Source: Bigelowiella natans CCMP2755 (taxonomy: Eukaryota > Protista > Cercozoa). Taken from it: a stretch of 64,000 nt of DNA. The position numbers were made by a program, and so were the translations under genes. Positions 1,714 through 60,800 of the stretch are shown one piece after another. How positions within the stretch are numbered: position 1 is the stretch's first letter; each line of letters opens with the position of its first letter. Location: NCBI GenBank assembly GCA_000320545.1, contig ADNK01002059.1, positions 1-64,000 of the forward strand, in the 5' to 3' direction. The notes under the pieces are model-generated. The model was not told where the DNA came from and made no database searches. It worked only from the letters and a program-made list of their open reading frames with translations.

Positions 1714-1747
<34 letters not shown>

Positions 1748-1969: not shown

Positions 1970-2011
<42 letters not shown>

Positions 2012-4590: not shown

Positions 4591-4599
4591 CTCCTTGTC

Positions 4600-5416: not shown

Positions 5417-5452
<36 letters not shown>

Positions 5453-10884: not shown

Positions 10885-10990
10885 CATGCAATGTGCATTG
10901 CATTGCCCACACATGTTTTGCCCACACGTGCACCAAAGTGTCGTGTGTGTTGTGCAACACATGTGAGCTCAACCACACACGCACCAAAGC
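10885..10990 (+). repeat. Copy of the dispersed repeat that hosts the Gypsy insertion
   Basis: atgttttgcccacacgtgcacc...tgttgtgcaacacatgtgagctcaaccacaca aligns with the joined flanks of the LTR element (52860-52877 plus 60182-60265). Confidence 0.6.
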
Positions 10991-12141
10991 AAGCGTTTTG
11001 TGAAGCACGTGTGTGTTCACAACCGCAGTTGAGTCCTTGAGTGCGTGGCTAATTTTTTCATGCGAAAGCTTTGCAATTGAGCAGTCATTTTGCTCAAATT
11101 TGCAATGGACACCTCTTTTTCTGCTTCAGTCAGTGGCTTTGTCTCATCGTTTCGATTCATGACAGCGCTCATGTGGCCACAAAGACCATGTGGCGTGCAC
11201 CCTCTTGGCACACATGTTCTCCACTACGTGTGTGGTGTTTTTTTTTGATGATGCACATGTGTTCTTTTGTGCATGTGCACGTGATGAAAATGTGATCACA
11301 ATGCAACACGTGGCACAAAAAAAATTCCACAACGTGTGTTCACATGCGCGCGTACGTCACACAGCCATGAAGGCCACATGCGCTAGCGTTCAATTGATTG
11401 CAAAATCCAAGCTGTTGATGTTCGCATTCCTCGCATTGAAGGAGATGATCCATGTCTTTCACGACCCCACAAACATTGCATGTGGCATCTGCTTCTTCAC
11501 ACTGTCCTCGGGATGACACATGTGTGTGGTGTTGCATGTCTAGCATGAGCAATGCATGCGGTGCAGTTGTCAAAATGGAGCATGCGTGTGCTTCCAAATG
11601 CATCCATCAAGTGACCGACCGTCTCACATCAATTGGACATGAGATGCAACAAAGCACAGAGTGGAAACCAACCCATCGACATCAGGGGAAGGGGAGAAGG
11701 TGGTTGCTTTGATCACTTCAATCACAAACATGTCGGGAGCACCGTTGTTGTTCCGGACAATGACATGACGCAATGCTGGAATGCAACGATGTTTGTGACG
11801 CCCCTTGCAAAGCTGTGGATTTGTGCTGCTGCAATCTGACAACAGCTGCGACCAGGATGTGCAGCAGGATGTGAACAGTTTGGGGCAAACCCCCCTCAAA
11901 TGAACAGAAGGCACTTCATTGGACAGTCTAGAATTGGGCAATCACACTCATGATGCATCAATTGAGGACCTTTTGTGCGGTAGATGTTTGTGTGCTGATG
12001 CCAGTGTGCTGTGTTGACAAACATGTCTCTTGTGACGCAAGCATTGTTTCTTGTGTTTTCTTGCATCCTCGTCAGCTCACTGTTTTGCGAACTTCAATCC
12101 AAACTTTCTCCCGCAGCGCATCAATGTGTGGCGGTGACCAT

Positions 12142-14071
12142 TCAGCATCTTGGTTGCCGTGATGAGGCGATGCGACAGGGGAGGGAGGGGGACGAAATCT
12201 GTTCCATTCTGCGGCCTGGACCAGCCTCAGGACCTTTTGTTTCTGCTGTCTTGCTGCTGATCCGAAACATGGCGCAAAAGTGCCGCTGCAGTGCGTGAAT
12301 TCTTCTGAGTTCACGCACTGCGTTGGTTTTGGTGGCGACAGGTGTGCCATTCAGTCTGACTAGACGCCAGCCTCGCCGCACGCCGACGTTCCTCGCTTGA
12401 TCATGGGTCTGGACGACAAAGTTGCGTCTGTCCAGCTTGCACACGCCCCGGTCGGCATCGAAGCGGTGAGTGTGTTTGGTGTCGGTCCCAGGGAGGACGC
12501 CTTTCTCGGCGTCCGAGGCACAACGACCGCACACCATGAAGCAAGGAAACACGACGTGGAGCCACGGCCCTGTCAAGACGGCCTCCAACCACAAGATCGT
12601 GCACAGACGGACTCCAATGTCCTGCGGCCATGTGAGCAGGGAAGCCACTACGATGTCCCAATCTGTTCCCTCTTTCCACACGGATTGCTAGATTGGTGCC
12701 CCAGCACAAGCACTGCAAAAGCACAGCCTGCTGAGACCACCACGCAAATCGCTGCGGCAACCAGGTCCCTCAATGTCCACTCATTGTGACACGGTGTGAT
12801 GCTAGATTGCACGAGGGTCGTCAGCCCGCAGCAGCATGCGACCGTTCTGGCACCGTTCTCTTCCGCATCCAACGGGCCTGTTCTCCAAGACTGACTCGCT
12901 TTGGCTTGGGATCTAGTCCTCCTTTTGCTCTCGTTTGCTGACATGGAACCGGCGGGCGCGCCAAAGCTGGTTGTGGTGCGCAAGAACAACACGTCATGGT
13001 TGCTGTCAACCTCATCTAGACACCGTGTCCCGCGTGAGCTCTCTGCGCTACTCGATGCTCCTTGGCCTGGATCGTCAGCCTCCGCGGACTGCATGACCAG
13101 GGTGCTCTTGAAGGCTTGTGCACTTTGCAACCTTTTGCACCTCCTACCTGCATTCGCTCCGACCAACCCTGCTTCCACCCCGACGGCCCCCGACGCGGCT
13201 GCAGCAGCAGCTGTGTTTCTCTGGTCAGCCGCCAAAATGCCCTCATCTTTGTTCTTCCTGTTCCTGTCATCATCATCATCATCATTGTCACCGTCGTCTC
13301 CTTCTCCAACACGGTCTTGGTCCATGTCGTTGCCCTCGGCATCATCCTCGATCTGCAAATCAAAATCGTGTTCCATTTCTCCCATGAGCACGGAAACGAC
13401 CCAGAAAAACCAAGGCATCGCCGCCACGAGGCCAAGCGGCGTGAATTCCATTCTGAACTCCTTCGGTGTCTCTCGTGAAAACATGGATGCGACCAGGAAT
13501 GGCAGTGGAAACCCAATGAACAATGCCACGACGGCCACTGCGACGTTTCCTCGAATGAATCCGAGCTTCTGTTCTGTTCCTAGCAGGAGCGCGCACACGG
13601 CAGCCGCGTTGAGAATGAGAAGGGCAAGGATCATGACTCGTTTTTTCGAATCGATGCAGTCCCCGGGCATTCGGACGAAGATGGACATCCAGGGGTGTCT
13701 TCTTCGGACGGCAAGAACCATGGATTTTTTCCAATTAGCGGCTGAACGAGCTAGCGAGGTTCCTCGAAATGCAGTTTGCGTGATTGGTTGAGACTCCGGT
13801 AGAACTCCCGCTCGTTTCTCTCAACGGCTTCTTTGGTCGCAGCCGTGCTCTTGTCATGGAACATGACCGTGACGAAGAGAGCTGCAAGCAACCCGAAAAG
13901 GATGACAGCCAATGCCATGGTAGCGCTTTTCATCGGGTTGTGAGCACTGGTGTTTTTGAGGTCGGTCGCTGAGATCGTGTTCACTTCCACTTGAAACGCC
14001 ATGCTGCGACATGTTGTTGTTGCATTGGGGTTGCAATGGGCACAATGTAGCAAAAGATGGAAGAGATTCAT
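12142..14071 (-). pseudogene. Polycystin-1-like (PKD/REJ family) multi-pass membrane protein remnant
   Basis: Frameshifted ORFs 13751-14071, 12648-13721 and 12142-12681: GPS-like segment then a TM helix, RRRHPWMSIFVR..D...SKKRV plus TM pairs, and an acidic loop. Almost Tyr-free. Confidence 0.55.
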
Positions 14072-14216
14072 CGTGAGCTGAGGAAGCTCTCGCTGAAAAT
14101 GAATTCTTCAATTGATTCTCTGGAGAAAATCATGCGTCGTGCAGATGCACTCGACCTTGCCTTGTGGGTGCATGAGACAATTTTGATGCTGCACAAACCA
14201 TTGAACCTTCGAAAAC

Positions 14217-15800
14217 TTGAATCGAATTAGGAAAAGGTTTCTGTGCAAGAACCCCAACAAAAGCATCATTTGCCGACAAAGTGTTGTTGAGGTGGTCCGC
14301 AAAAGCCTTTCAAGCCTGGACGCAATCGGACAGAAGCGTGGCAATCACACCGCTGGAGCCTCGTGCGTTGATGGCCTCGCGTTGTTGCGTTCTCTCGCGT
14401 ACCTGGATCCGAAAAACATTCCATTGGAGTTGGTCTTTCTACCAACGGTCGACACATCGCCCAATCAGAGTGAGGATTGCCAGGAAGACAAGCAGAAAGA
14501 TGAAGAGCGGTTGCTCTCTGGCAGTGAGACTGAAAATGACGATGAGACCATGATGAAGCTCACGGTCGCCAGGAAGAATGGGCTGCAATGCTCCAGCACG
14601 GAACCCGGCTCATGGTGCACAAATCCCACAAAACAGAACACAATTGGCGACTAGCCAAGACTTTGGGACAGGCCTGCAATGTTGCATGCCTTCATGACAA
14701 AGCTTTGAGTTGGTTCGAAACAAGTGCCAAACTAGCTGAAGCTGATTTAGCATCCGGTGCGTCAAAAAAAGAAAAAGAAACAGAAACAGCTGGCATCTGC
14801 AACAACATCGGCTCAGTGTGCGAAAACATGGGGAAGTACCCGGAGGCGCTCGCGGAATTCGAAAAGGCACTCACGATCAGGTTGGCGGTTCATGGCACGG
14901 AGAAACCACATCCAGATGTGGCTGAGAGCCACAACAAGATCGGCGATGTTTGCGACAGCATGGGAAAGCATCCGGAGGCGCTCGCAGAATCAAAAAAGGC
15001 ACTCACGATGAGGTTGGCGGTGCACGGCTCAGATGAACCACATCCAGATGTTGCTGATGGCTGCAACAACATCGGCTAAATCTGCGACAGCATGGGGAAG
15101 TATCCGGAGGCGCTCGTGGAACACAAAAGGGCACTCAGGATGAGGTTGACGGTGTGCGGCTCAGATGAACCACATCCTGATGTGGCTGATGGCTGCAACA
15201 ACATCGGCTCAGTGTGCGACAATGTGGGGAAGTACCCGGAGGCGCTCGAGGAATTCGAAAAGGCACTCACGATGAGGTTGGCGGTGCACGGCACGGAGAA
15301 TCCCCATCCGGAAGTGGCTGACAGCTACAACAAAATGGGCGATGTGCATGAAAGCATGGAGAAGTACCCGGAGGCGCTCGCGGAATTCGAAAAGGGTTTC
15401 GCGTTGAGGTTGGCTGTGCACGGCAAGGAGAAACCACATCCGGATGTGGCCGAGAGCCACAACAAAATGGGCGATGTGTACGAAAGCTTGGAGAAGCACC
15501 CAGAGGCGCTCGCGGAATTCGAAAAGGCACTCAGGATCAGGTTGGCAGTGCACGGCAAGGAGAAAGCACGTCCAGATGTGGCTGAGAGCCACAACAACAT
15601 CGGCTCAGTGTGCGAAAACATGGGGAAGTACCCGGAGGCGCTCGCAGAATTCGAAAAGGCACTCACGATCAGGTTGGCGGTTCATGGCACGGAGAAACCA
15701 CATCCAGATGTGGCTGAGAGCCACAACAACATCGACGTGTTCACGACAGTGTGGGGAAGTACCCGGAGGCGCTCGCGGAATTCCAAAAGGCCCACAGTGT
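14217..15800 (+). pseudogene. Kinesin-light-chain-type TPR repeat protein (NB-ARC/TPR-like C-terminal part), pseudogene
   Basis: LALLRSLAYLDPKNIPLELV (winged-helix-like segment seen in NB-ARC-TPR proteins) followed by about 7.5 x 132-bp (44-aa) TPR units from 14801. In-frame TAA at 15077 and a frameshift near 15735. Confidence 0.85.
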
Positions 15801-17825
15801 GTTCTCTGCTTGCAAGATGCGTGATGAAACTTTTCAGTGCAAGACTGTGATGTCATCACTCATTTCAAAATGCAAAAAACAAAGAAAATGAAAGGAGGGT
15901 GGGAAGAATGAAACCGGAGGAGACACATCACCGCAAAAGTGTGAGTCAAAAAAGGGGGAAGGGGAAGATTGTTGTGGAAAGAAACAAAGATGCAAAAAAT
16001 CAGCATGCACATGTGCAAGAAAATGATCTCATGGTCACCAGAAGACATGAACAACGTGTGGTCAGTCCAGGCCACCAAGACACGTTGTGTGCGCATGTGC
16101 ATGCATGTGCATGACTAGATGATGGCATGTGTGCAATTTGAAACATGCTGTGAATCAAACACTGCAGCTCCACCAAACAAATGCAGGGGCATTGGGCCGT
16201 GATGTCAGAATTCGCTAGAAAACATGACTGCACTTTGTGCTCATGTTCGCAAGCACGCATGTCAGCACTTCTCACAAGTCCGTCAAACCCGGTGACGACG
16301 GGGTTGTGAACAGTGCAGCGCTTTGCGACGCGATGTGAAGAATCAGGCAGTTGCAGTTGGTCAAAGAAAAGTCATCAGAACTTGTCCGATGGCCAAACCT
16401 CAAAAAATGACCGAAATGTTGACCAAAATGTCCATTTTCAAGGTCTCAAAGTGTGAAAATTCACACCCGTTGTGCAGCGGATGCACGCTGCGCGTTTGTT
16501 CTCTGCCACATTTTGAATGCTTTTGCGTGTGCGTTTGACCAAATGTGACATGCACGAAAAATTTCAAAGAAATGCGAGCAAATCCAACGTGTCCATTGCA
16601 TCACATGACGCGCTTGGTCGCGCGCAAAAGCTTCCAAATGCACATTCTGGCGATTCGTTGCAGGTTTGACGGACTTGTGCTAGATTTGCATTGCGTGGCT
16701 TGTTCGCCTTGCATGTCACAGTTGTGCATCACAAGCACCGCAAGCTCAAGGCAACGAATTGATGTGCACACAATCGCAATGTCGCACACACGCTGCACGA
16801 TGTGCTGCGACACTCTGGTGCTGCTCAGGCATGCTAGCATGGCACACATCTGCTGCACTCACACATCACGCAACAACATGATGAAGTTAATGATCTAGCT
16901 GACAGATGTGCACATGCATGCGTGTGTACATGCATGCACACAACTAGATGAATGCACACATCACACACACACACACACACACACACTCACTCACACACAC
17001 TCACACATCTCTTGACAAAAGTTGCTTATCATTTGATGACTACGTACATTTTGGTAGACATCATGGAACATGAGCTCCCTCCCCCATCACTGCAGTGAGA
17101 ATGATGCATGCTGTCGTCATCTAACCCCGTTCGCACCCGCTGGGGCAAGGCCACTCACATCATCAACATGCTGAGTCGGCAGCAGCGGCTGCTGTGTTGT
17201 TTCATCGTTGCGACTCCCCGTGCTCCTTCTTCGGCCGACGGATTGATACATTCCCTCCCCAGAGACCTCTGTTAGTTCTCCTTCCTTCTCCGCGACAGCT
17301 GCTGCTGCTGCCGCCGATGCGTTGGCGTTGGTCATTGCCCAAGAGTACCAAAGTCCACCTGTGTGCAGACAACGGTGAGGCGGTCTGTGCTCGATCGCAT
17401 GACGTTGAAATAAGTGGGTTGGCTAAAGCAAAATGCACGTAAGAAACGCTGTGCTTTCTACAGTGAGAGGGTTTTCCCGTTGAATGATTTTTGGTCAAGA
17501 AACAAGTCAGGGTTGGCGTGATGAACGCTCCCGGTGGGTCCAAACAGGGGATTGGCAATGATCGCTCATCACACGTTGTGCAAATCAATTGTGTGGACAT
17601 TGATGGCAACTTCGTGCAAGCTGGCATGGCGGCGCGTGCGAATGAGATTCATCAGGTGGCTGGCATTCAACACGATGCACGCGTGCCTTGGCAAAAGACT
17701 AGTTTGATTCACATCACAGAAAATTCACACAGTTTGCAAGCTTTCATCATCGCAGCGATGTGGATCTAGTAAACCCTTCGTTGGACCGGAGAGACACCCC
17801 CAAGAAAGCAGGCAATGTGCGGCAG

Positions 17826-27936: not shown

Positions 27937-29700
27937 ATGGGCCTCCAGCAGGGCGAGGTGAAGCAGAATTTCTATTGTAGCGGTACTAAATTCTTTCATA
28001 AGCTGGAGGACGGGACGGGCAGGGATGATGTACTACCAATAAGCGCATGTACACGACTCACATTTAGAACTTCAGTGATGCACATGATTGCCTTGCATGA
28101 CATGAGTTCAATTCTATCGTGAGCGAGATCTACGTGCGCTGTGGAGTACCTGTACGTAGCTCGCAGAGTTTCGTTGGCGCGTACAGAAACATGTGCAGGT
28201 GATGTGCGCGCGCGCGCGACATTGTTGCAGTTGAATGCGTCCACCTCGGCACGCAGAAGAATTCAGGAAAAACAATTGTGCAAAAGTTTCATTGCAAACC
28301 CACGAAACCTGCTGTGCGCGGTGGGGTTCGAACAAGTTGTGGACGTGGGCGGTGCTCAGGCAAACACCACGTGTGCGCTGCAATGAGCTTGCACAAAAAC
28401 GTCGCACGTGTGTGTGTGCGCAATCCATTTTTGTCTGTGCACGTGGTTGGCATGACTCAGTGCGATAGATTGCGTGGCTGTGCAAACGATCCCTCCCAAG
28501 CAGGCGAACGAACCCGGCAATTTCACGGTGTTTCGCACGTTTCCTGCAAGAATCGAATTGAATCAATGCAGCGGCACTACGCACGATTTGTGTGAGAAAA
28601 AAACACGTTTTGCCACAGTTTGGCTTGGTTGTTCGAGAAAAAAAACTCAATTTTTGAACGTCCAGACGTGCTGGAGGTCAACTCGTGACAAAAAAAGGAG
28701 GCCTGAACTCTGGAACCAGTGAAAGAAAAGCGCGAAACGCACTTCGAAGACATTGAACTCAAACTTCGCAGCTTTCTCATTTTCGTCATGCCTTGTGCTC
28801 CCCGTGCTGCCCATCAGAGTGATCGTGCTCCAGTGCTCAAGCGTGGCGTTTTTGAGTTCACTTTTTGACCGTGCGTGGCCGCACCAAATCGCACCAAAAA
28901 TTGAGAGAGCTTTCTGTGTTTTTTTGCTCTCCCAGAGTGCTTGCGCAATTTGCCTGGTTGTGTTGCACACACGTGCATCTCGCACGTGCCGATGTGAAAG
29001 CCAGTCATCACCACGCCACAGCGCACCAGCGCACACCACCAGACCAGCACCAGAGCACACAATGCGCCACCTGCGTGACATCACAGCACGCCAGTGCAGG
29101 TTGCTGTGCGCCAGTGCGCGTGCACGCGTCCAGGCGTCACAACTCCAGAACTGCTGGTGCACTCCAGCACTCTCAAACACGATGATTCGCAGACGTTGGC
29201 ACAATTGGTCGTCAGACTGCCACAGCTAGCTCTGGAGCTGTGCGCGCGCTGCCGAGAACCGCGCTCGCCCACTAGCAAGCTGCAGCACAAAAGTGATTCT
29301 GTGCTTTTGTGGCTCCAGGGCTCGCTCAATCGCTCAACCGTTTCCTTGGAAGCTGAGCTGTTTTGGTGTTGTCAAGTTGTGCAGTGAAATTGACCCGTGC
29401 CAGCGTGTGCGCCGCTCTGTGGCACGGCAGGCTGCTCGATGGGCAAAGCTGGAAAGAAACTTGCAAGCGCTGTTTTCGCCAACGTGCACACTGCGCCCAT
29501 GCCAGCATGCCTGTGCAGCTTGAGAAAATGGAGCTGTCGTTGGAAACACATTGCATCACGACAAGAATTTTCACTGCGTGTCTTCAGATGATCAAAACTG
29601 AACGGCTTCAATTCCGCGAGGGTTGTGAGTTGACAATCATCATCGCATGCATGCATGTGCAGCAAATGCGCGGAGCTGCTGCACACTGGCACTTGCACAA
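27937..29700 (+). pseudogene. Multi-exon gene remnant running from unmutated into mutated sequence
   Basis: Exon-like MGLQQGEVKQNFYCSGTKFFHKLEDGTGRDD|gt with Tyr intact, then Tyr-free fragments (KQLCKSFIANPRNLLCAVGFEQV; ETHFEDIELKLRSFLIFVMPCAP). Confidence 0.35.
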
Positions 29701-30950
29701 AGTCGTGCGTGTGCGTGCGCCCCATGCCAGCATGCCTTGCGATCGAGTGGTTTTCCACGTGCGACACAAAAAACGTGTGACCATTCTGGCATTGTGTGCC
29801 AGTGCGTGTGATGATGGCCAGATGGACACGGCGAGACTGTGCACATTTGCACACGTGTGGTGTTGCGTGTTGCGTGGTGTCTCATTTCACAAAAATGCAC
29901 TTGCAATGGACTGGTGGACACAGTGATTCCACGTGCATTGCACGCATTGCATCGTCCCGCGTGGTGTCTGTCATTGTGCCTCATTGACGGTCACGCGGTC
30001 CAAGTGAGACAACGCTGGAACGCTGGAACGTGCAAATTCCAAGGCTTGACATTCCTTGGCGGCGCACACGTCTAGACGTCGTGCAAAAATGATGGACCTG
30101 CATGGCAACCATCTAGCCATGCCAGCATCTAGGCATGGCCAGTGCAACGTGTTGTGTGCATGGGCATGCGCGTGTCATCTGGTCATGTGTCACGTTGTGC
30201 ACTTCATGTACATGTCCCATCACGTGTTGCTGCACGTCTTTGATGAAATCTAGAAATGCCGTTGTGATGATTGCCCTGCCAAGGTGATCATCCTGCCTGC
30301 GCAGCTTTGTTTGAAGCATGATGATGCATTTCAAGCATCGAATGCCGAAGTGTCATCACGCACTGCAGCTAGCGTGGATCGAATGACCAGAGCACAGGAG
30401 GGCTCTGGAGCTAGAGGGGCGCGCACCTTCAAAATGAGCCACGCTAACACGCTAGCACGTCGGACGACCTCTGGACTCTTTCTCATGTTTTGCTAGATTT
30501 CGATTCTGGATTCATTGGTGCACAACTTGTGCAGGTTTGAGTTGCGCGTTTTGGTGCGCCATGTGGCACATGTGAGTGAGACAAGTTTATGGCCATTTGC
30601 ATGCGCACTCTCATGATGCGCACGGCAAGTGCAGCAAAGTGTGTGACGACATTTGACATGGTTTCTCACTAGTCTCATGCCTGTTCACTGCATGTAGCTA
30701 ACTTGCGTATTAGCGTAGTCTAGTAGTGTGCAAGCGCGCATGTCTTTCTAGCTTCTAGAGCTTTGTTGCTACGCGCTGGCGCACGATGCTGAGCAGGCAG
30801 AGTAGTGCTTACCAAGGAGGGCCCGAGGGAGAGTCGAGATGTCGTTACTCATCTAGTCATCATGCACAACTCGTCATCCTGGTGATTACACTCGGGCTCG
30901 ATTGTCACAGCTGTGGATGCATGCATGAACGTAAATGATGTACCAAAAGC
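28200..30950. other. TpA-depleted domain 3
   Basis: TpA nearly absent 28200-30600; CTAG-rich fringe 30050-30950. Confidence 0.9.
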
Positions 30951-42151: not shown

Positions 42152-42823
42152 CCGTTGGGAGCAGAGTTGTCTACACATCGCGTGTGTGAGACGGGCTAGC
42201 GTGCTAGCGGGGGCCGAACAACCTGACAACTCAACTGTCAACCCCATCCGACGAACTGGTGTATGTACACCAGTAATCATTGCATCGCTTTTCGAGTTGA
42301 CAAAAGCTCACATCGAGAAGGTGCTTGTTTAGCTGACTTGCAATGCAAACAGTGCACCAAATGTGCATCATTTTGCTAGGATCATGTAAACTTATTTGCA
42401 TGGTCTTAACCATTTGACACACAATGACCACGTTTTACATTCTTTTACGTACATCTATTGTGTGCTAGAATTTTAGCCGCGTTTAGCGACGCAATGATTA
42501 CTGGTGCATGTGCACCAGTGACGACCACCTCCAACAAACATTGCGCCACACAATTCACTTTGACGCCAAAAGGCTAGTCGATGAAGATGGACACTACGCG
42601 GACAAGTCCGTCTCAAAGTTGCTGGCACACGGTAAAATCTGCGATTTGACACACTCCTGCTACGAATGTTTTTGCATGGTTGGTTTCATTGAACATGAAA
42701 GAGGAACCACATGACACACATTTGATGATTTGTCGACATTGAATGGTTTCAATGATCAGCTACAGATTTCAGCAGCTGTCTGTCACACAAAGCGAGCCTG
42801 TGATTCTCAAGGCTCGCTCTGAT

Positions 42824-43156
42824 CTACGGCTTTTCATCCAGATAGTGGTGATTGTCGTGTTCAAAGGGCATGGCTGAGCCCACCGGTGCTTCCACCCAGC
42901 TCGTACCATTAGCTTGCTTGACGTGGGAGGCTATCAGCCACTTTTTCCCGTCACTTTCCACGACTTTGCCCTTCAGAGCGGCTCCGTCGCGGGGCCAGTC
43001 GTTGTTGGAAGCCAGAGTGTGGGTTTTGGTCGGATCCTGACGCCAAAACATGCCTGTGCAGCCCGCTCGGCGCTTCTTGAGACAATGCGTGGTGCCTGTG
43101 GGCTCCGCAGTCGAGTTTTCCTTCTTTTCTTGTTCCTTGGAAGACATTTGTCCCAT
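42824..43156 (-). CDS. Small intronless hypothetical protein (110 aa, MGxxSS myristoylation-like start), probably mutated
   Basis: ATG-to-TAG ORF with globular, Trp-rich composition; His/Cys occur where Tyr would be natural (THCLK, GCTG, FEHDNHHYL). Confidence 0.6.
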   Translation of the reverse strand: MGQMSSKEQEKKENSTAEPTGTTHCLKKRRAGCTGMFWRQDPTKTHTLASNNDWPRDGAALKGKVVESDGKKWLIASHVKQANGTSWVEAPVGSAMPFEHDNHHYLDEKP

Positions 43157-43479
43157 GCAGAGTCGACCCTTTAGTCACGGTCAGTAGAGGCAGGGATGTG
43201 AGATGTGAAAGGAAGGAGGTCGAGCAAGGAAGCAGTTCTCAGCAACACAATTGACGAACAATTCCAGGACGATGAGAAACATCCAAATCAGACATCAAAT
43301 CATGTGTTGTCGTCCTGCACAATTTCAATGCGTTTCCGCGCAAGGACTGTGAGTTGTCGTCAGACTGAAATGACACGACATTTTGCGTCCCAAAGTGCAT
43401 GTTGTTTCGCAACAACGACATGTGTCGCATGCGAGTACACATCACCATCACTAAACTAAAAGTCATTGCAGAAATCAGC

Positions 43480-43915
43480 GAGGTCCATCATTGCTCTCAT
43501 TTGGATGCTGCGAGGGATGCATTCTCTCGAGTGTCAGGGTGGCCCTGGGTCCTGGCTCCTCCTTTTTTCGTGGCTCCGACTCCAGTGATACTGAAGTCCC
43601 ATTGGGTGCCCCCTCGGACGACCCCTCCGTGGACCGTCGAAGTGCAGCCTTCAGGAAGTTCTTGCTTGGAGTGGGTGCCCATCGTCGACGCCACACTGCT
43701 GGTGGCCAAATTGTTCCACAATGTGCGTCTGTTAGCTAATTGCAATGGTCAGGTTGCCAAATTCAAAAACCTGCTGGTCTCACCAGCTAGACCTCACTGA
43801 AGCTAATTCGAGGCACTGCGTTTCGCACACTGCAAGTCCAGAAGCTGAGTGTCTTGCAACGCTGGAACGTTTTGGAAGTGTGGTTCGTCACCATTGTTCG
43901 TTGTTCATTGTTCAG
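43480..43915 (+). mobile_element. 3' fragment of a LINE-like element (ORF C-terminus, 3' UTR, simple-repeat tail)
   Basis: Peptide FFRGSDSSDTEVPLGAPSDDPSVDRRSAAFRKFLL is homologous to the inverted copy at 49902-50141; ends in an (attgttc)-type tail. Confidence 0.6.
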
Positions 43916-44634
43916 TGAATTGACAATTTGCCATCCCTGGCTTCTGTCGTGTCACTTCGGACCACTGGCTGCAAATGGCGCATTGTGCAACAAGAGCATC
44001 AATGGGAATTCTGGATTTTGCAATGCCAGAATGCATGCTCTTCTTCACTCCCAAAGTCACCCGTGAAGCAGGACCCACACAGAATTGCTGTGTCCATTGT
44101 GTAGCAGCACTAGAGCAGAGAAAGCCATCCATGAATGTCCTTTGCGTGCATGTTGTGCTAGTGTGCCTAGTGAGCGCACGTCGTGTGCGCGACGTGATCG
44201 ACTGGCAAAGATGCCAAACACATGCGTTGCAAATGCAGGGGACGCTGCAGTTCTAGAGTTGCACCAAGGGTGCGTCCATACGTGCAGCGGTCATGCAAGC
44301 GAGACTTTTTCGCCGTCGGAACAATGAATGTGATGAGCCAAAAGTTCTAGGTGTTGCACATCTAGAACTATATTTGCAATTCTAGAAGTGCATGATGCAC
44401 AGCCAATTTAAGCCCGAGCCCGCGAAAAATGATAATCGTAAGCTTTGCTTTTGTTAACTACGAACATAAGTCATCTCTCTTATTGAATCTTAGACACGTT
44501 TTAAGGGGGAAATGTGTAAAATTCTACTATTACGAGTGCAGGACTAAGAAAATACACGAAATTCTAAGATGTCGCAACAATACTTTGATCTTTTAGATTG
44601 AAACTAGACGATATCATATCGCTGACAAACTCAA

Positions 44635-48199: not shown

Positions 48200-50170
48200 G
48201 CATAGTCGCAAATATGCGCCGACTTGGAAAGGTGCCCTTGTACCACATCAATCGCAATTGCATGTGCTGTGTGTCCGTAGTCGACTGATGAGCAACATTT
48301 GAGAAGCATGGCCACAGCGTTCGCAGCTTCCATGTTGTAATGTACTAGTGCAGGCACGCACGCTCTTTGCGATTTCTCAGAAATCCCGCACAGCTCATCT
48401 GTGCATCAATGCATCAATCGATCAATCGGCGTCAGGCGCACAAGTTCGATCACAGCAGATCTGTGGATCTGACTGGTCTGAGTTCAACAAATGAGTGGCA
48501 GTCACAACAATGGCAATGAGGTGCAGAGGGCATCGACATGCCTCACTAGCTCATTGCATGTGCTGTGGTGCACGAACGTTGAACAATCCACGGCGGAACT
48601 TCGCATTGACGTGGCGCCACACGCCGCTTCAGCGCTACTGCTCCATCGGCAATGAGTCCCCAGCACAGTCTAGCAGTGACACAGTGATCGGTCATCGCCA
48701 CGCACGCTCACGCGCTGCGCAAGGAGTGCCAGAGTGCACAAGTAAGTGAAGGATCGAGTGGACGCGAAACGATCAACAGTTGCAACTTTGCAACGATGCG
48801 AACGCACGTCAAGAAAGCGGGGGCACGACGAACGAAGAAGAACGACGAACGAAGAAACTTGACCCGCTTGAACAAGCTGGCAAGTTAGCAAGACTAGAAG
48901 TGAGTGTTGTGAACGAAACAGTGCAAGTGGTGCAGGGCTGAAGGATCGTTGGGTGTGCCGACTCTTCCAAGCCCTCCCCAAGCAGCAAGACTGTTGTGAA
49001 AGAGTTGACAGCTCTGGGCATCCGCCAGCCACAAGCACTCCTGGACTCGTGCAGACAGAAGACGTGACGACCTTCAGAGCACAAAGCCCCAGGCGAGTCT
49101 GTGAGTGGACGAAAGAACGATTGGGCAGGTCAATTCTGGAATCATGAAGCCGACACGCAAGGCGAAGAAAAACGAAAAAAAGAATGGAACGAAAAGAAAC
49201 TTTGTTGAACGACCACACCTGGACACCTCTAGACCTCCAAAGGGTTGCACGACACTTGTGAAGTGTGAAATGCAGTGCCTCGAGCTGAAAACAACACGGA
49301 CTCACTGGCCCAGCTCACCAAGTGCAGCTCACGGTGGGTTCAACTTTGAACCTGGCAATCGAGACCGCAAACTGGGCCGGAATGAGTGAAGAAAGAAACA
49401 AACAAACTGTGATGATGATCAAGCTTTCCAACGAGTTGCACAACAGAAACTTGCAAAGTGCGAAACGCAGGACCTCGAGCTGAAAACAGCGAGGAGTGAA
49501 CAACAGACAAACAAACAAACGTGATGAAGAACCACGTTTCCAAAACGTTGCACGACACTTGCAAACTGCGAAACGCAGTGCCTCGAACCAGCTAGTGAGG
49601 ACTGAACAATGAACAATGAACAATGATGATGAACGTTTCCAAAACGTTGCAAGACGTTTGCAGTGTGCGAAACGCAGTGCCTCGAAGCAGCTTTGCTGAG
49701 GTCCAGCTGGTGACTGATTGGACGTGAAAAATTGGGATTTCAGGAGTGAAACAATGAAACAATGAAACAATGATGAAAAACCACACTTCCAAAGTGTTGC
49801 AAGACACTTGCAGCGTGCAAAATGCAGTGCCTCGAACTGGTTTCAGTGAGGACTGAGACTAGCAAATCAACTAGCTGGTTTGCCAAAATGGCATGACTTG
49901 GTCATTGAGAAGCAATGACATCAGCAGCAAAGTTCTGACGGCGCAAGACCTCCACTCTGAGCAAAAACTTCCTGAAGGCCATGTCCACATGACGATCTAC
50001 GATTGGATCATCTGAGGGGGCCCCCAGCAGAATTTTGGTTTTGGAGGAGTCTGGAGCGTCAAAGAATGAAGAGTGGCGGGAAGAAGCTGAACCCAGAGTT
50101 GATGTCATGTGCGAGAGAAGCTTGCATCTCTCTGCATTCAAGTGAACACATGTGTTTCAATTCATTCTTG
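48200..50170. other. TpA-depleted domain 5
   Basis: TpA almost absent except in CTAG/CTAC. Confidence 0.9.
49200..50170 (-). mobile_element. Head-to-tail stack of about 5 LINE-like 3' ends plus ORF C-terminus
   Basis: About 55-bp motif (ccaaaacgttgcacgacacttgcaaactgcgaaacgcagtgcctcga) at about 49240, 49430, 49540, 49640 and 49790, with simple-repeat tails between; homologous to 43480-43915. Confidence 0.6.
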
Positions 50171-50624
50171 GTAGGATTTCGGAGTGTAGAACATTTGCTA
50201 AAACCCTTCATTTGGTTTGGAAAATAATCGCAACGACGCGAAAAAGTGCCCATCAATAAACATTTTTCCCCCTTTGGAGCGATTTTGCTAAAACTCTCTA
50301 ATGATGATAATGATGAATGATGTGAGAAAACTTCCTGACTGATATCATCATATCCGTTGCAAGAAACCACCAAATGTTATTTGTAGTAGATCTAGGATTG
50401 ATTTTCCTCATGAGACAATTGATTCATCCAAGTCGCATGATATGAAACGGAATGCGTTTTTCCTACGTCATACTGTGATATTTATCGGCGTGCACCTATC
50501 ACCATTTTCGAAAAAGACGAAAGAACTGCACTCTCCCCCGCTCCTACGAGATCTAATTTTATCCCTCCTCTCTGCTTAGTCTGCGAATATTTACAAAAAG
50601 GAAAGAAACATCGACACTGAAGAA

Positions 50625-51442: not shown

Positions 51443-52877
51443 GCTATGATTATACTTACCTTTCTCACACAAAGAGATGCACAACATATATGTGTGTGTT
51501 TGTATTATTAGATGTCCATATTAGTGGCACATGTACGTTGGAATGTGCAACATTAAAAATCGGCGAGTCGGGCTGCATTTTTGGATAGCATTCAAAACGA
51601 GCTTTTAACTTAGTCGCAAAAATTAGATTTTCATAATCTGTTTCCGGGCAGATTTTGCACGAATAAATTGAGTTTAATAACATAAGGTCATGATGCTCGG
51701 TGCATCTACACTTCACAATCTTAATGTCTACCGATGTGTGAATCGAGAGGGCTGCGCGTTGAAGCAGCAAATCATTTCAACAAAATGAGATTTTGCATCT
51801 AGTGCCATCAGCTCAAATCATTAGATTTTTTTTCTTACCTTTGATTTGCGCCATGCAGCACGAAAAAAATGAACCTGTGATGTGCTACTACTGCCAGTGT
51901 GACACGGAGAATATCTAATCTATGGCGCTGTGCGCTATATAGCCGCTGTAGCATCTAGCTAGAGCATGTCCAAGATGTGCGCACTTAATGCGAATTGTTC
52001 TGGTAGAAAAGAGTGAAAACATGCAACCATTCTAGTATTGCTAGATTGTGCGTGCAAGATGGATGCAATGGAGTTATCGCCATCGTTGATTGATGAATCT
52101 TTTGTTTCAATAACAGCAGTCATCCTGATCGATATTCGTGGGCATGCAAAGCCCAAGCTAGCAAGTAGCAGCTCTAGAGCTACAGCGCTTGCTAGCTTGC
52201 ACTGCATCTATTTTGTTTCTGCTTTTGTGCTTTTGCGTGCGAGTTCACTTTGGTCATTTGGACTAGTTCTAGAGTTCAGCTAGAGGATCCACATCATGCT
52301 AGCATGCTCGTATCTAGGTATGTCGTCGATGCCGCGCCGCATGCGCATCAACGCTAGACGCTAGAACGGTTCGTGCTTGCGTCCTTTTGTTCAGCTGTCA
52401 TTGGTCGTCTGGTGTCGTCATTGTGCGGTCCACAATGGCATTCTAGCATTGCATTGGTTTCGTTGTCTGAGCTGTTGGTGTGCTCACATGCGTCGCATTG
52501 CAGGAGACTGCAAGAGATGGTCTGTGTCTTTCATGATCACGACACCATGCCACGTGTGTCATTGCACGTTGCGTCTGCTTCTTCGTGACATCCACGGTGC
52601 AACATGAAGCTTCCGAGATTGTCCACGCCGCTAGGCCGCTGCAGATGGTCCGCATCCACTAGTCCATGTGGTAGCAATGCTAGGTAGCTTCATTGTTTTG
52701 ATGCCTGCCAGCAAGAGACACGGGTGCACCTCTGGACTTGCATGCTGGCATGGCTAGATGTGTGTAGCCTCATGGGGTCATGTAGCGCACGCACGTGCGA
52801 ACATGTGCAGTTCCATGCACGCATTCTTGACCACATGTGCCATGACCGCGCATTGTGCGCATGTTTTTGCCCACACG

Positions 52878-53810
52878 TGTAGTTGCACATCATCCTGATG
52901 TGCAAATGCATGTCGCGCCTGGTCATGGCGGACACAGCGTGGCGCGCACAGGCGCCCATTGTCATCACATTGGCGCCTGCATTGGCGCCTCTTTGGTTGC
53001 ATTGGCGCCTGCATTGGCGCTTGTTTGGCGGCCCGTTGGCAAGGGGCGCTTGGGACGTGACCGGTCATCATCACGACGAGCGGTTGTCGTTGCGGTCACT
53101 GTCGTCATCAACATTGCGACAAGCGGTTGTCGCAATGGTCGTTGTCACGATGAGCGGTTGTCGCAATGGTGCGGAGGTGACAACTTGGTTGCCGGCGGAG
53201 GCGGTGATGAGTCAGTTGCCAAAGGGGGCTGCGACAGGAGCAGCAAGTTTGTTGTCATCATCAACAAACAAGTCAACAGAGAGGGGATTGAACGGAGGGG
53301 ATTGCCTCCGTTTGATCGCAGAGGGAAGCGAACGGAGGGGATTGCCTCCGCATCAAATTGAGTCCAGGAGACCGATTGAGAGGGAAGTGAACGGAGGGGA
53401 TTGCAGTTGGCAAACGGCAATCACACCTCCACAATTGAACTGAACGGCGGTGGGCCGAAAGGAAGCAGAGGCAGAGATGCGAAGAGGACGAAGAGCAAGC
53501 AACGACCCCAGGGAGGTGTCGGTGCGAGGCAGGGAGAGGCAAGACAGCGTCGAGAGGGTGTTGCCTGATCGGGTGGTGTTTCAGACGGAGTTCTGGCATT
53601 CGCAATTGTTGAGAGTGGGCAGGAATCACACCGGCGACGGCGCCGGTGAACGTTCAGATGATCCTGCATCCTCAGTGTCAATGGGGATTGACACTGGTGC
53701 CAATTGTTTGACGTTCAATGGTGTTCATCAAAGGTTCACGTTTTCCGTTGATTGTTCCGATGTTGCGCGACGTGTTGCGGGCGCAAGCGCGGCGCAGAGG
53801 GACAATTGCA
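52878..53810 (+). repeat. 5' LTR (933 bp)
   Basis: TGTAGTTG...AATTGCA, aligns with 59200-60176. Confidence 0.92.
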
Positions 53811-53811
53811 C

Positions 53812-53826
53812 TGGCAGCGGCGAAGC
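53812..53826 (+). promoter_or_regulatory. Primer-binding-site-like sequence
   Basis: TGGCAGCGG... one base after the 5' LTR; cognate tRNA not assigned. Confidence 0.55.
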
Positions 53827-53835
53827 AACGAGAGG

Positions 53836-56800
53836 ATGGAAAGAGGAATGAATGCGAGAAATGCAAGGAGGTCAGGCTCTGCTGACGGGATGAGGTCAGA
53901 GCCTGCGGACGGAACGACGGAGGAGAAAGTGCGACCTGGTTCGTTGGAGAGCTTGCAGGGGCAAGCAAGATTGGAAACGAGGGTGAGCGTGCCATCGGAC
54001 GAAGTGTTCCGCAAATTGTTGCGAGCGGGGGCAGCTCAGGAGGGTTTGAAAATGGACATGGAAAGAGAGACGGCAACATTGAGTGACAACAAAGAAAGCA
54101 GGACGTTCTTCTTCAAAAGGTTTGAAAAGAAAGGGATCACGGAAGAGGTGTGGGAATGGTTCCCAGCTCATCCGGAAGGTGCAGATGTGGCAGTGGAAGC
54201 ATCGGAGTCGGAATCAACGTCGGCAAATGGTCCAGAAGTGGTGGACGACAGGAAAGTGAGTCAAAAAGCAAAGGCGTTGGAATCCTTTGGTGGATCCACA
54301 AAGGCAAAAGCGCAGTCGCTTGATCCGGCCAAGACTCATGCTGCTGACTTCAGAAGGGCAGCTGGAGACTTGGAGAGCAAAGTGAAAGGACACGTGCAAC
54401 CACTGGGCACTTCAATGGAGTGGGGTTGCAATTGCTTCAGAGCTTCTCTCTCCTTGGCAGCGAGAAAGCGCACAGATGATTGCTTTGGAGAGGAGCCAGG
54501 AGAAGAGCCTGGTTGTGAGGAGAGGCTGAGTGAAGCTGCAAGACACTTGTGCGACGAGACATCGGAAAGTGAATTCCGGAGGAATTGTGAGGATGAATTT
54601 CGCAGATTGGAAAGGAAAAACTGCAAGTTTGTGGATGCCATGAGCAGCAGTTGCGTGAGGTTGCGTGGCTGGTTTCCGGGAACAAAACCGGACTTCGAAG
54701 ACCAGAGGTTGGACTTCGAAAGGCTGCTCAAGAAACACAGGTTTGCAAAGGAATTGCAATCAGCTGTGTCAAACGTGAGCTTCAATGGGGATTGTGACAG
54801 CATGGTGAGTTTCTTGAGGCAAAGAGAAAAGATGCCAGCTGAAAGCTTCCTCCCCAAAGCTCCGCACGTTCAGAAAAAGAAATGGGAGGTGAGCAGTGCA
54901 TGCACGGAGTGTCTCATGGGAAAATGCAAGAAGGGGAAGGAGTGTCACAAGAAGCACGAGGGAAAACCCGCACGTCGCTTCTTTCACAAAAAGGGAACTT
55001 GCAGATTCGGAGATGGATGCAAGTGCAGGCATGCAAAGGAGCTGCCAGGAGAAAAGAAAGATTGGAAACCCAACAGAGGAAAATCCCTGGGAATTGATGC
55101 AGGGGATGTGCAGCACAAGGCAGCCAAGGATGAACCCAATCCCAATCCCGCAAAGAAGGAGAAAGAAGTTGCCTGGGATGAGCTCTCCCTGGAGCTCACT
55201 GCGGTGAATCTGGCTGAGTTGGCGGAGTCAATGTCGAAGCCCTGTGAAGAGGATCCGACCCTGAGAAGAAGAAGAAAGGCATCAGTCCACTTGGAGGGGT
55301 CCAAAGGGGTGTTCAAAGGGAAGGCGTTGGTGGACAGTGGTTCACAACCCACCTCCGTGCACGCATCGGTGTTGCAGAAGTTTGAAAAGCTGGGCATTCC
55401 TTTCACTTTCGCAGCTAGGAAACAACGTGCAAGGTCTTTCAATGGGGGAGCAAGTGAAACTCTGGGAGAGGCTGCGTTCGAAGTGAAATTCAGAGAGGCG
55501 AAAAGCAAGGCCAGTCACATCAAAGTGAAAACGTGGGCAACAGTGACAAAGGCAACGGTTGCGCATGATTTCCCAACAGGGATGGACGTGCAAAACCTGT
55601 GTTCGATGGCGGTCCACGGTGACCCTGACCCCAAGCTCCGGAGACTGACGGTGCTGAACAAAGAGACAGAATCACAACCGTGCAGTCAAAAAGGGGAGGG
55701 ATGCATTGCATCGGAACTGAAATTGCTGTCATCAGAACTGCCAGAAATGTGGGATGTGAACAAGCCAGATGTGTCCAACAATCGTGAGGCAGCTGAAGCC
55801 ACATCGTCCACACCACCCACTTTTGAGTCCTTGGCAGACGCTCCAGACCAAAGGCCACACAAAGTGGAGAATGGCTGTCAATTCATCACGGAAGAGGAAG
55901 CTGGGAAGGGGGTTTCTGAAATCATGGGGGCAACTGCCTTTCCGGATCAGGCAGCCACTGCGAACAAGGACGTCACGGAAGATCCTGCAATGGTGAGCCC
56001 ATTGGACAGAATCGAAAGTGAGATGAAGTGCGGTGACAGTGTGATGGACACAAAGGAACAGTTCTGGCATGTGCGTTTCACGTTGTGTCGCTTTCAGAGG
56101 GCATTCGTGAAGGAGCTCAGCAGGTGCGGGGGCTTCAGGAGTGAACCGCGTGATGTGTTGCCTTGGTTGAAGCCAGGAGTGAAGCCATTGAGGCAGCAGC
56201 CTCATCGATTGCCGCCGGATGAGCTGATGACACTCAAGGAGGCAGTCAAGCAACTGTGTGACGCTGACGTGTTCTGCAAAGTGGATGACACGGACACGAA
56301 ATGGGCTTCACCTGGGTTCCCAGCATGGGACAAAGGAAAGACGATGCCCAGGGTGGTGGCAGCCATGCAAAAACTCAACGACTTGTGCAAATTGCAGCAC
56401 AATGTTGCACCCATCACAGAGGTCACGCTCACGAGAGTTCTCAACTCTCCACGGAACGCACACAGTGACGCCAAAGGGGGACACAGACAAGTGCCATGCA
56501 CCATCATGACACAAAGAATGTTCACCATGGTGGTCCTCTGGGGTGCCTTTGCGTCGAACTCGTTGCCCGTGGGTTGCAAAAACTCAGTGCAAACGTTCTG
56601 TGAGAAGGTGGATGAGGTGTGCTCCGAGTTGAAGGACACGGCAACGCACGTGGATGACGTGACTGACACGGGGGTCAATCACCTTGCTGGTTGCTTGGAA
56701 TTCACTGAGCACCTGAGCAAGTGTGAAGAGAAAAATTCAAAGCTGAGTGCAAAGAAGTTGCAAGTGTTTCCAAGGAAGGCACAAACATTGGGGTTGCTGA

Positions 56801-59000
56801 AAGAGGGGAACACGTGCAAACCTGATCCCAAGAGGTGCACAGCTCTTGATCAGCTTCAAACGCCAGCACCTGGAAGAAAGTTTGAGAGTTCAACAAGGAG
56901 GACAATTGGGCTATTCGTTTGTTGCTTGAAATTCATTCCAAACTTCTGGGACACAGCTCATCCCATCAAAGAGCTGCTCAAAGAAGGGGCTGAAGCGGAG
57001 TGGAAACAACAGCATCAGGATGCATTCACTGCCTTGAAGCAGCTTCTCAAAGAGTCGTCCTTGACCACACCTGAGTTTGCGGAAGTGAGCGTCAAGGCAC
57101 CCTTCACAGTGGACTCAGATGCGAGTGACGTTGCAGGAGCAGGCACATCATCGCAGGTGACAGAGGGGAAGGAGAGGTCAATCGCTTGATTCTCTTTCGC
57201 ATTCTCGACAGTCCAAGTGGGTTGGACCACATCGAGAAAGGAAGTGTGCACACCTTTGCGGTTGTTCGATGAGTGGGCAATGTGGCTTGGGGGCTTCCCG
57301 ATGAAGCTGAGAAAAGATTCAAGGTGTGCAATGTGGTCAGTGAAGCATGGGCAAGACAAAATGCGAGAGCCTTGGACCAGGATGAGTGCAGCTTGTGACC
57401 CCTGGATGATGGCAAAACACGAACACCGTCAGCGGGACTTGCACGTCAATCCAGACACGTTCACGTGTGAATCTGAGGAGGCCAAGACAACCAGCAAGTG
57501 CGCGGCAAGAAAGACATTGAAGACCTTGTTCCCTGACCAGCACGAAGCAGCAGGAGAGTTCCTGAAAGGATGCAAGGAGAGAAGCAAGGACAAAGACCTT
57601 GAAGTGCATCCTGCCGAGACACCAGCGGTGGAAAATGAGTGGGGATTGCCCCTCACTGAAACCACCGTTTGGGAAATCAGTGATGCAACACATGAGACCA
57701 ACTCTCCAGAGGCAAGCACCAAGACAACCGTGTCACCGGACAAAGACACCTTGAAGGAGGAGCAGCGTGGAGACTTTGCGAAGCACTTTGCGGCCTTGGA
57801 GAGTGCTGAAAGCAAAAACCACGAGTCAGCAAAGTCTCAGCATCGCATCGAAGGCGAACTGTCACACAAGATGGGATCGTTCGAAGTGGGGGGAGCGGTT
57901 CCCTTGCTGATCTGCGTTCCCAAGGAATGCACATTGCGCATGCCAGATGCCCATCACGTCGACAATTTGTCGAATCACCGCAACGCCACTGACCTGGCTG
58001 CGAGGACATTGAAGTCGCACCATTGGCCGGGACTGAACAGGGAATGCAGAACCCACGTGAAGGGGTGTCAAGTGTGCATCAGAGCCAAGACAAAGTTGAA
58101 GAAATTGCCTCACGCTCAAAACAAATGCACGTCAATGATGGATGCCATTGGCTCAGATGCCATTGGGCGTGCATCGGGCAAGAAGCACCACGTTCTTGCC
58201 TGCAGCACCTTGTCCATTGGTCACCCAGTGGCCAAAGCGACGAAGACCCTGAGTGCAAGGAAGGCAGCCGATTTCTTGCTGGACGTGGTGACGACTTGTG
58301 GTGTGCCCAAGAGGACCATTGCGGATTGGGGGACGGAGTTTGTCAATGAGATCTTTGAACACCCAGCTGACAGACTTCGTCACAGGCATGTCAAGACATC
58401 TGTGAAGAATTCACAGGGAAACAGTGACTTGGAGAGGAAGCACAGAGCACACAATGAGGGAGTGCTGTCCCAGCTGATGCAAAACGCAGGTGCGAAAGGG
58501 AATTGGGCAGACTGCCTGGAGCCCATGGTGTTTGCCATCAACACCTTGACGAACACTCGGGGATGCTCTCCGGCGATGCTTCTGTTTGGGTTCCAGCCCA
58601 AGCTGTTCCCTGACGTGGAGACAAAGCAAGTGAAGGGATCCACTGCGGAGGATCGCAAAAGATGAACGATGCAGACGTGCGATTGCGACGCACCCAAAAC
58701 GCAAGGGTGCTGTTTGCTGCCTTGCGAGACGAAGCCAAGTTCAAGGCCAATTTCACAAGAAACGCCAGTCCAAAAACGAAGTGTGCGGACTGTGGTGTGG
58801 GGGATCAAGTGTGGCTGCACCGAGAGGACAGCAGGAAGGCCAATCCCGTCACCACCAAGCATGACCTGATGAAAACAGGTCCAGTTGCAGTTGTTTCCGT
58901 CAATGGGCGGAGCAATGCTCACCGGGTGGTGGACGAGAGGACTGGGTGCTGTGCTGCCGCACATGCGAAGTGCCTCAGTCCTCTGGGACGCTTCAGAGTG
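53836..59000 (+). pseudogene. gag-pol polyprotein (CCCH zinc fingers, aspartic protease, RT, RNase H, integrase with GPY/F-like tail), inactivated
   Basis: ALVDSGS (protease); WASPGF, DAKGGHRQV, LPVGCKNS, HVDD at 56647 (RT); DSDASD (RNase H); H..H..HWPGL..CQVC, ADWGTEF, LERKH (integrase). In-frame TGA at 57187 and a frameshift near 58660. No Tyr in the 1145-aa or 482-aa ORFs. Confidence 0.93.
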
Positions 59001-59181
59001 TTGCCTGAGGTGGAGGACGTGAGCTCGGATGAGGAGAGTGGTGAATCCTCACCGTCTGAGTCTTCGAGTGGTGGGGGAGAAGACGAGGACGGACCTCCCG
59101 CACTGGAGGGCTGGAGGGGAAGAGGAGCAGGAGGCCGGCTCACCACGGACCTTGCATGTCGTCTTGAGTTCTTGCGAACTC

Positions 59182-59196
59182 AAAAGAAAGGGGGGA
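59182..59196 (+). promoter_or_regulatory. Polypurine tract
   Basis: aaaagaaagggggga just before the 3' LTR. Confidence 0.85.
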
Positions 59197-59199
59197 TGA

Positions 59200-60176
59200 T
59201 GCAGTCATGCATCATCCTGATGTGTGAACACACGTCGCGTCTGGTCATGGCGGACACAGCGTGGCGCGCACAGGCGCCCATTGTCATCACATTGGCGCCC
59301 ACATTGGCGCCTCTTTGGTTGCATTGGCGCCTGCATTGGCGCTTGTTTGGCGGCCCGTTGGTGAGGGGCGCTTGGGACGTGACCGGTCATCATTGCGACG
59401 AGCGGTTGTCGTTGCGGTCACCATCGTCATTGACATTGCGACAAGCGGTTGTCGCAATGGTCGTTGTCACGATGAGCGGTTGTCGCAATGGTGCGGAGGT
59501 GACAACTTGGTCACCGGAGGCGGTGACAAGTTGGTCACCAAAGGGGGCTGCGACAGGAGGAGCAAGTTTGTTGTCATCATCAACAAACAAGTCAACAGAG
59601 AGGGGACCAAACGGAGGGGATTGCCTCCGTTTGATCGACACAGAGGGAAGCGAACGGAGGGGATTGCCTCCGTTTGATCGACACAGAGGGAAGCGAACGG
59701 AGGGGATTGCCTCCGCATCAAATTGAGTCCAGGAGGCCCGATTGAGAGGGAAGTGAACGGAGGGGATTGCAGTTGGCAAACGGCAATCACACCTCCACAA
59801 TTGAACTGAACGGCGGTGGGCCGAAAGGAAGCAGAGGCAGAGATGCGAAGAGGACGAAGAGCAAGCAACGACCCCAGGGAGGTGTCGGTGCGAGGCAGGG
59901 AGAGGCAAGACAGCGTCGAGAGGGTGTTGCCCAATCGGGTGGTGTTTCAGACGGAGTTCTGGCATTCGCAATTGTTGAGACTGGGCAGGAATCACACCGG
60001 CGACGGCGCCGGTGAATGCTCAGATGATCCTGCATCCTCAGTGTCAATGGGGATTGACACTGGTGCCAATTGTTTGATGTTCAATGGTGTTCATCAAAGG
60101 TTCACATTTTCCGTTGATTGTTCCGACATTGCGCGACGTGTTGCGGGCGCAAGCGCGGCGCAGAGGGACAATTGCA
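59200..60176 (+). repeat. 3' LTR (977 bp, one extra internal repeat unit of about 42 bp)
   Basis: TGCAGTCA...AATTGCA, aligns with the 5' LTR. Confidence 0.92.
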
Positions 60177-60800
60177 ACACGTGCACCCAGAACGTGCACA
60201 TGTTCATGATTGCGTGCGTGTCAAAACACAGATGTTGCATGACACACATGAATTTAGCCACACATGTCTCCGAGAACACACGTGTTTCAGACCCGGTGCG
60301 CTCTGTGGCCTCATCAGTCACAGGGCCACAATAAACACATGTGCACTTGGTTTCTTGCCTACTCTTGTGCCCCACCCACACCCAACAAAATTTTTGAGTG
60401 CACATGCTAGCTAGCTAGCATGGATGGCCATTCACATCAACTCCACGTGCATCAGCAATGAAATGCATGCACATGTGCCATGCTAGCATGCATGCTAGCA
60501 TGGCAGTCTAACAGTGCAGAGTGCACATGTGAACCATGCATGTGCACTCATGCAACATGCTTGTGCCACACAAGACCCAACACAGCAGTGGTGATGGGTG
60601 CCATGCAAGTCAAGAGACACGTGTGCACTTGTGCACATTTGGTCTCTTGCGCCATGAGAGAGGTTGGAAGGAGACAAAGCTGTTTGAATCTTTTCATGCA
60701 CATCGTCATGTCCATATGTTCCTTCATCATGTGGAAATGACATGCAAACTACAGTTTTAATTACTTTGCGCATCAGGACGATTGATTGACAATGATCAGA

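Follow-up and report, generated by a model that had tools for sequence, protein, structure and literature searches.

In fungi, RIP introduces dense, dinucleotide-specific transitions into chromosomal repeats, disables transposons and inflates the divergence between copies. APOBEC3 and ADAR leave clustered, context-specific transitions on one strand of a mobile retroelement intermediate. For Bigelowiella natans, a recent mutation-accumulation study reported that 231 of 302 nuclear substitutions fell into two integrated viral regions (Mettrop et al., bioRxiv 10.64898/2026.01.13.699255). Almost every change in the two regions was A>G or T>C, and each change of this type lay on TpA; the same preprint found TpA-depleted coding sequences enriched for RT and DDE domains and named an ADAT2 homologue as the candidate enzyme. 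TadA-derived editors likewise convert A to G and, in the accessible part of PMC8989541, work best after a 5' T, with a gain of 25–52%. A literature search, with most subscription papers outside its scope, returned this single preprint on the B. natans process; within the same scope, LTR pairs in B. natans and the combination of RIP with LTR dating gave no match.

The window analyzed here is a 64,000-nt stretch of the B. natans CCMP2755 assembly (GCA_000320545.1; contig ADNK01002059.1, positions 1 to 64,000, forward strand). It contains a 7.3-kb element with the following parts and flanks:

52500..52872, no strand: TA-poor left flank; 8 TAs against 19 expected, all 8 in CTAG or GTAG
52873..52877, plus strand: left target-site duplication, ACACG, identical to 60177-60181
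52878..53810, plus strand: 5' LTR, 933 nt, ends TG...CA; one TA kept, at 52880, in TAG context
53812..53829, plus strand: likely primer-binding site, starting with TGG right after the 5' LTR (from the sequence and established LTR anatomy)
53848..57186, plus strand: frame for gag (CCCH zinc fingers), protease, RT and RNase H, with zero tyrosine
57187-57189, plus strand: in-frame TGA ending the gag-RNase H frame
57190..58665, plus strand: last part of RNase H, followed by integrase (H2C2 zinc finger, core); frame change near 58660
58614..59180, plus strand: C-terminal part of integrase in a second frame, aligning to the end of P0013
59182..59199, plus strand: polypurine tract ahead of the 3' LTR (from the sequence)
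59200..60176, plus strand: 3' LTR, 977 nt, including one additional tandem unit around 59638-59683; zero TA left
60177..60181, plus strand: right target-site duplication, ACACG
60182..60750, no strand: TA-poor right flank; 10 TAs against 38 expected, 8 of the 10 in CTA/TAG context

With LTRs ending in TG...CA, a 5-nt target-site duplication, a primer-binding site and a polypurine tract, the element has the make-up of an LTR retrotransposon. Its domain order of RT, RNase H and integrase, found both on the element (Pfam; RT and RNase H below the curated cut-offs) and on the relative P0013, is that of Ty3/gypsy elements. The coding region is broken twice, by the TGA at 57187 and by the frame change near 58660. 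Gene model Bigna1/78027 of B. natans (100% identity over 68% of the query region) covers 53848-59726, spanning the dead element and reading on into the 3' LTR; this model and two other B. natans models of the same element family contain zero tyrosine. About 6% of one RNA run gave 55 reads for the region, a count that, lacking a host-gene baseline, supports no conclusion on expression. The 64-kb window yielded no tRNA genes, and a host gene within it has its best named match, at 65%, in the chlorarachniophyte Amorphochlora. Several near-palindromes lie in the LTRs (53286-53317, 53673-53696 and their 3' LTR equivalents), as does a short tandem unit whose copy number differs between the 5' and the 3' LTR. 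Three intact gypsy-family relatives, P0013, P0015 and P0016, share CCCH zinc fingers in gag, and in their RT YxDD motif the usual Tyr is replaced by His (HVDD/HMDD). We therefore rejected HVDD instead of YxDD as evidence of TA loss in the element, as all three aligned intact relatives also have His.

Global alignment of 52878-53810 with 59200-60176 gave 930 ungapped columns with 43 mismatches. With transitions scored cheaper, 32 of the 43 mismatched bases form 16 adjacent CA<->TG swaps, and a TA/CA difference at 52880 brings the total to 33 (12 alignments were co-optimal under this scoring and the first one was used; the initial alignment had 15 swaps, the 16th appearing beside a 3-nt indel at 53190 after realignment). 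When the same number of transitions was placed at random on the first alignment, a mean of 0.29 and a maximum of 4 swaps arose in 20,000 trials. TG stands in the 5' LTR in 10 swaps and CA in 6, and the remaining 10 mismatches comprise 7 transitions and 3 transversions. These results bear out a preliminary description of this DNA, according to which most LTR differences are CA in one copy and TG in the other, both directions occur in both LTRs, and the first site still reads TA in the 5' LTR; all eight example pairs that it quoted are present in the sequence. Contigs from three of three DNA runs show zero differences at the TA at 52880 and at the outer LTR ends, so these are not assembly errors. 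A point absent from the earlier reading is the uneven spread of the swaps: the first 440 nt hold 14 of them and the other ~490 nt just 2. Set against the concordant CA/TG sites, this imbalance has a Fisher p of 0.003, and the two halves are similar in concordant CA+TG content (35+38 versus 39+38). The asymmetry could be due to gene conversion, to a parent that was already partly mutated, or to native TA poverty.

The dinucleotide missing from the element is TA, with 3 copies against ~374 expected (TpA o/e 0.01). As a reference for the coding region, we used P0013, an intact metagenomic relative of 1770 aa with 80% identity over 1759 aligned residues. All 63 of its 63 tyrosines are lost in the element, having become 34 Cys (TGY), 26 His (CAY), 2 Arg and 1 Phe. 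Among the 344 amino-acid differences between the two, A>G/T>C alone suffices for 269, the reverse alone for 34, and neither for 41. Of 220 visible TpA-context sites, 219 have changed (polarisation with P0015 gives 148 of 149), and where an ancestral TpA is certain from P0013, 224 of 443 adenines have changed, i.e. one of two per site. The ancestral pair at these sites was TA. For the LTRs, TA ancestry is extended from the coding region, where the outgroup is a protein only, and is suggested by the bases themselves at 52880 and 53365. Among the 40 of 915 rows listed, contigs of other copies carry T at 53365, where both LTRs here read CCAG, so that these copies retain a CTAG; the differences seen in such contigs come as paired T>C/G>A and C>T/A>G changes. 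Candidates for DNA of a close relative, as an outgroup for the LTR, were confirmed in 0 of 10 cases; further outgroup DNA candidates (5 of 94 and 11 of 293) were confirmed on a short CCCH zinc-finger stretch only, and none was used.

Six TA-poor zones, picked by eye from the TA profile of the window and totalling 24,750 nt, were then compared with its normal zones for surviving TAs. Survivors in CTA/TAG context account for 110 of 134 in the TA-poor zones versus 960 of 2665 in normal zones, and CTAG for 53 of 134 versus 89 of 2665. Outside the element, CTAG in TA-poor zones is undepleted: its 52 against 68 expected equals the proportion found in normal DNA (89 against 117). There, A/T-flanked TAs are down to ~2%. 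Inside the element CTAG, too, is nearly gone (1 against 26 expected). Five of the 13 GTAC survivors come from a single TPR array.

A weaker tier of A>G/T>C change, which includes ATG>GTG, lies outside TpA. The ApT class, at 50 of 244, is weaker than TpA, and of the adenines that have no T on either side 22 of 1244 changed. In the per-context count of coding adenines without a 5' T, from which positions with neighbours unassignable from P0013 were left out, changes occurred at 13 of 75 ATG, 9 of 103 ATA and 4 of 181 ATC/ATT adenines and at 12 of 1165 elsewhere; adenines after A (AA/AC/AG) stay at background level (9 of 370). A general ApT tier was rejected and narrowed to ATG and ATA, with ATC/ATT at background (p = 0.26). 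The ATG/ATA tier holds when polarised with P0015 (21 of 85 versus 6 of 813), and also when the first positions of Ile and Met are removed from this polarised set (12 of 61 versus 5 of 812). Only 3 of 14 weaker-tier events are common to this copy and P0017. Against the tier, conservative replacements make up most of the 13 ATG events (6 M>V, 5 N>S), the outgroup is a protein only, and the two LTRs, with ~35 such sites each, show just one ATG-type difference. Since all hypermutation-type changes in the B. natans preprint lie on TpA and in just two viral regions (bioRxiv 10.64898/2026.01.13.699255), neither the ATG tier nor present-day activity on the element was observed there.

Besides the element, blockwise TA loss in the window takes in unidentified DNA and the region of a TPR-repeat gene. 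There are five further TA-poor blocks, graded at their edges (1000-5750, 10750-17000, 28250-30250, 42750-44250 and 48250-50250); their survivors are mostly CTAG, CTA and TAG, and they resemble targets of this process with less exposure to it. One of them contains the TPR gene (14546-15850), whose seven 132-nt tandem units show three columns with TA alongside CA and/or TG and whose frame is interrupted by an in-frame TAA; a host-like repeat gene appears to be a target as well. Contigs that join the left flank (52480-52872) to the right flank (60182-60500) across the element suggest that it was inserted into another repeat with empty-site copies. We did not read the TA depletion of the flanks as a spread from the element, as the contig joints and loose ends suggest that these flanks are repeats in their own right. 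Along the edges of the TA-poor blocks, 52000-52500 among them, CTAG reaches about twice the composition expectation (41 versus 19 over these edges). A TA-normal island at 6797-10420 lies between two TA-poor blocks and holds one frame with a caspase-like Pfam match and one with a weak DUF5666 match.

CA/TG mismatches are the textbook signature of CpG decay, and the LTR pattern matches what would result if a methylated CG had decayed to TG in one copy and to CA in its partner. A CG ancestor at the CA/TG sites is also what the preliminary description had named as the case that would overturn its reading, and this case fails. At 70 of the 74 CG sites of the LTRs both copies are intact, and under a uniform decay model ~32 single differences would be needed for 2 double ones; the observed 4 singles and 16 doubles reject it (p about 2e-26). 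CpG, with an o/e of 0.73 in the element, is not the dinucleotide that is missing, the affected His and Cys codons correspond to Tyr and not Arg in the relative, and G>A/C>T changes in the coding region are rare (33 of 1393). As the main cause, CpG decay is therefore refuted, and we accord it practically no probability; the 4 singles (CG/TG or CG/CA) lie above the background of other transitions and may still be its work. As to timing, LTRs are identical once reverse transcription ends and hence at integration, so that discordant LTRs place the mutations after this step, although the LTR pair alone proves only this much. Editing of the RNA, or a single burst on unintegrated cDNA, could draw on the known 5' U preference of A>I editing by ADAR (bioRxiv 10.64898/2026.01.13.699255), and double-stranded cDNA could be hit on both strands, in which case the LTRs would differ. 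RNA editing, however, would yield TG alone, copied identically into both LTRs, and after a single cDNA burst each daughter would carry the changes of one strand, whereas the coding region is saturated with 119 TG and 100 CA outcomes (n = 219), interleaved without strand runs (105 runs versus 109.6 expected). TA is also scarce in unrelated zones and in the flanks beyond the target-site duplication, and we consider editing before integration very improbable. Random interleaving instead argues that the chromosome went through round after round of damage and replication, and the same change arises de novo in the B. natans nuclear genome in the mutation-accumulation study (bioRxiv 10.64898/2026.01.13.699255). 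Chromosomal timing is thus strongly indicated, in agreement with the earlier proposal of post-insertion mutation of chromosomal DNA. Two other B. natans copies, P0017 and P0049, have zero tyrosine and make the same His/Cys choice as this copy at 9 of 19 and 4 of 11 sites, respectively (13 of 30 overall), as expected if each copy began TA-rich and resolved its sites alone.

Taken together, it is very probable that the TAs of this dead Ty3/gypsy element were nearly all converted to TG or CA on either chromosomal strand over many generations after insertion, likely by a candidate host adenine deaminase. TpA being palindromic, each site offers two adenines, of which a changed top one gives TG and a changed bottom one CA; either change destroys the target, leaving one event per site with a random outcome per copy, as the 224 of 443 changed adenines show. 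The candidate enzyme would deaminate adenine to inosine with a graded preference, taking A/T-flanked TA first, CTA/TAG later and CTAG last, and at high exposure would change the A of ATG at a low rate. TAA and TAG stops cannot arise from TA loss, so the element is disabled mainly by missense while its frames stay long; we infer a defensive role. Part of the TA loss might nevertheless predate insertion, if a mutated parent was mobilised in trans, or the LTRs might have been partly homogenised by gene conversion, the mechanism being the same. Such mixed timing would fit the presence of only two swaps in the 3' half, where CA+TG content is similar, and a number of ATG-tier differences between the LTRs below that predicted from the coding region; the independent resolution of coding sites among the three copies speaks against it, and the 3' half may simply have been TA-poor. 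We regard mixed timing as possible, though rather unlikely. Polymerase eta favours WA motifs, and error-prone patch synthesis of this kind in marked chromatin, or a modified T (or its partner) that miscodes, could produce the same chromosomal TA>CA/TG changes by other chemistry. By sequence, A>G on one strand is indistinguishable from T>C on the other, and the deaminase is a candidate only in the preprint (bioRxiv 10.64898/2026.01.13.699255). Against this stand the background level at adenines without a 5' or 3' T, AA included, and the small share of transversions among the LTR mismatches (3 of 43); we judge such a chemistry improbable. Returning to the deaminase, we see about an even chance that it reflects a genome-wide 'reverse RIP' in B. 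natans, in which a natural double-strand DNA adenine deaminase acts on silent blocks through many generations, its preferences forming a readable ladder (A/T-flanked TA > CTA/TAG > CTAG > A of ATG). If so, the ladder would provide an exposure clock for each repeat and a fingerprint for identifying the enzyme.

The K2P distance between the LTRs is 0.048 over all sites and 0.011 without TpA-type sites (4.3-fold lower), and it falls to 0.0056 (8.6-fold lower) when five ambiguous ApT/CG-type sites are also dropped. At the baseline mutation rate of 3.46e-10 (bioRxiv 10.64898/2026.01.13.699255), the insertion would roughly be ~7e7 generations old by the naive estimate versus 0.8-1.6e7 after masking. 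That LTR divergence greatly overestimates the age of the element had been anticipated in the preliminary description, and the size of the effect is 4.3- to 8.6-fold. Our own arithmetic from the preprint counts gives a hypermutation rate of ~1e-5 per TpA per generation, at which saturation would take only about 5e5 generations (a rough figure). The uneven swaps may reflect partial homogenisation of the LTRs, which would bias the dating the other way. LTR dating in this lineage must mask CA/TG sites. Gene finders are misled as well, as the removal of TA also removes TAA and TAG stops, and the absence of tyrosine provides a simple flag for false gene calls.

Compared with known systems, the element resembles APOBEC3 and ADAR targets in its clustered, context-specific transitions in a retroelement, and differs from them in that both strands are affected and the LTRs are discordant. 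The 5' T preference of TadA editors, as given in the accessible part of PMC8989541, is far less strict than the pattern here, and the CTAG resistance and ATG tier are unmatched in the TadA/ADAT2 editor data of that part. The context ladder makes a concrete in-vitro prediction for any candidate enzyme, namely that CTAG is edited poorly and ATG weakly. The likeness to RIP, which the preprint also names as an analogue, lies in dense dinucleotide-specific transitions on chromosomal repeats. RIP, however, changes C to T and creates TpA and stop codons, whereas here TpA is removed (o/e 0.01) by A:T>G:C changes, the frames are left open and single-strand runs are absent. RIP is triggered by repeat pairing in the sexual cycle; the NCLDV target of the preprint is single-copy. 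The closest match is the B. natans hypermutation itself, with the same species, TpA>TpG/CpA on both strands, A>G/T>C almost only at TpA, and nuclear DNA of foreign origin; the TA loss of the element is likely this recently reported A-to-G DNA hypermutation. The preprint targets are an NCLDV and a virophage insert with ongoing mutation and many TpAs left, whereas here an LTR retrotransposon has been hit to >99% saturation and its LTR pair serves as an internal control. The terms LTR, retrotransposon, CTAG, context, ApT and flank are absent from the main text of the preprint (bioRxiv 10.64898/2026.01.13.699255), and the context ladder and ATG tier are described here and not in that main text; this locus may be among the TpA-depleted coding sequences and clusters of its supplementary lists, and the contexts may be given in its mutation table. 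New relative to the preprint are the retrotransposon target, the near saturation, the independent resolution of sites, the 4.3-fold inflation of LTR divergence and the context ladder. In conclusion, a process described in one preprint from two viral inserts is extended to LTR retrotransposons, with a built-in control.
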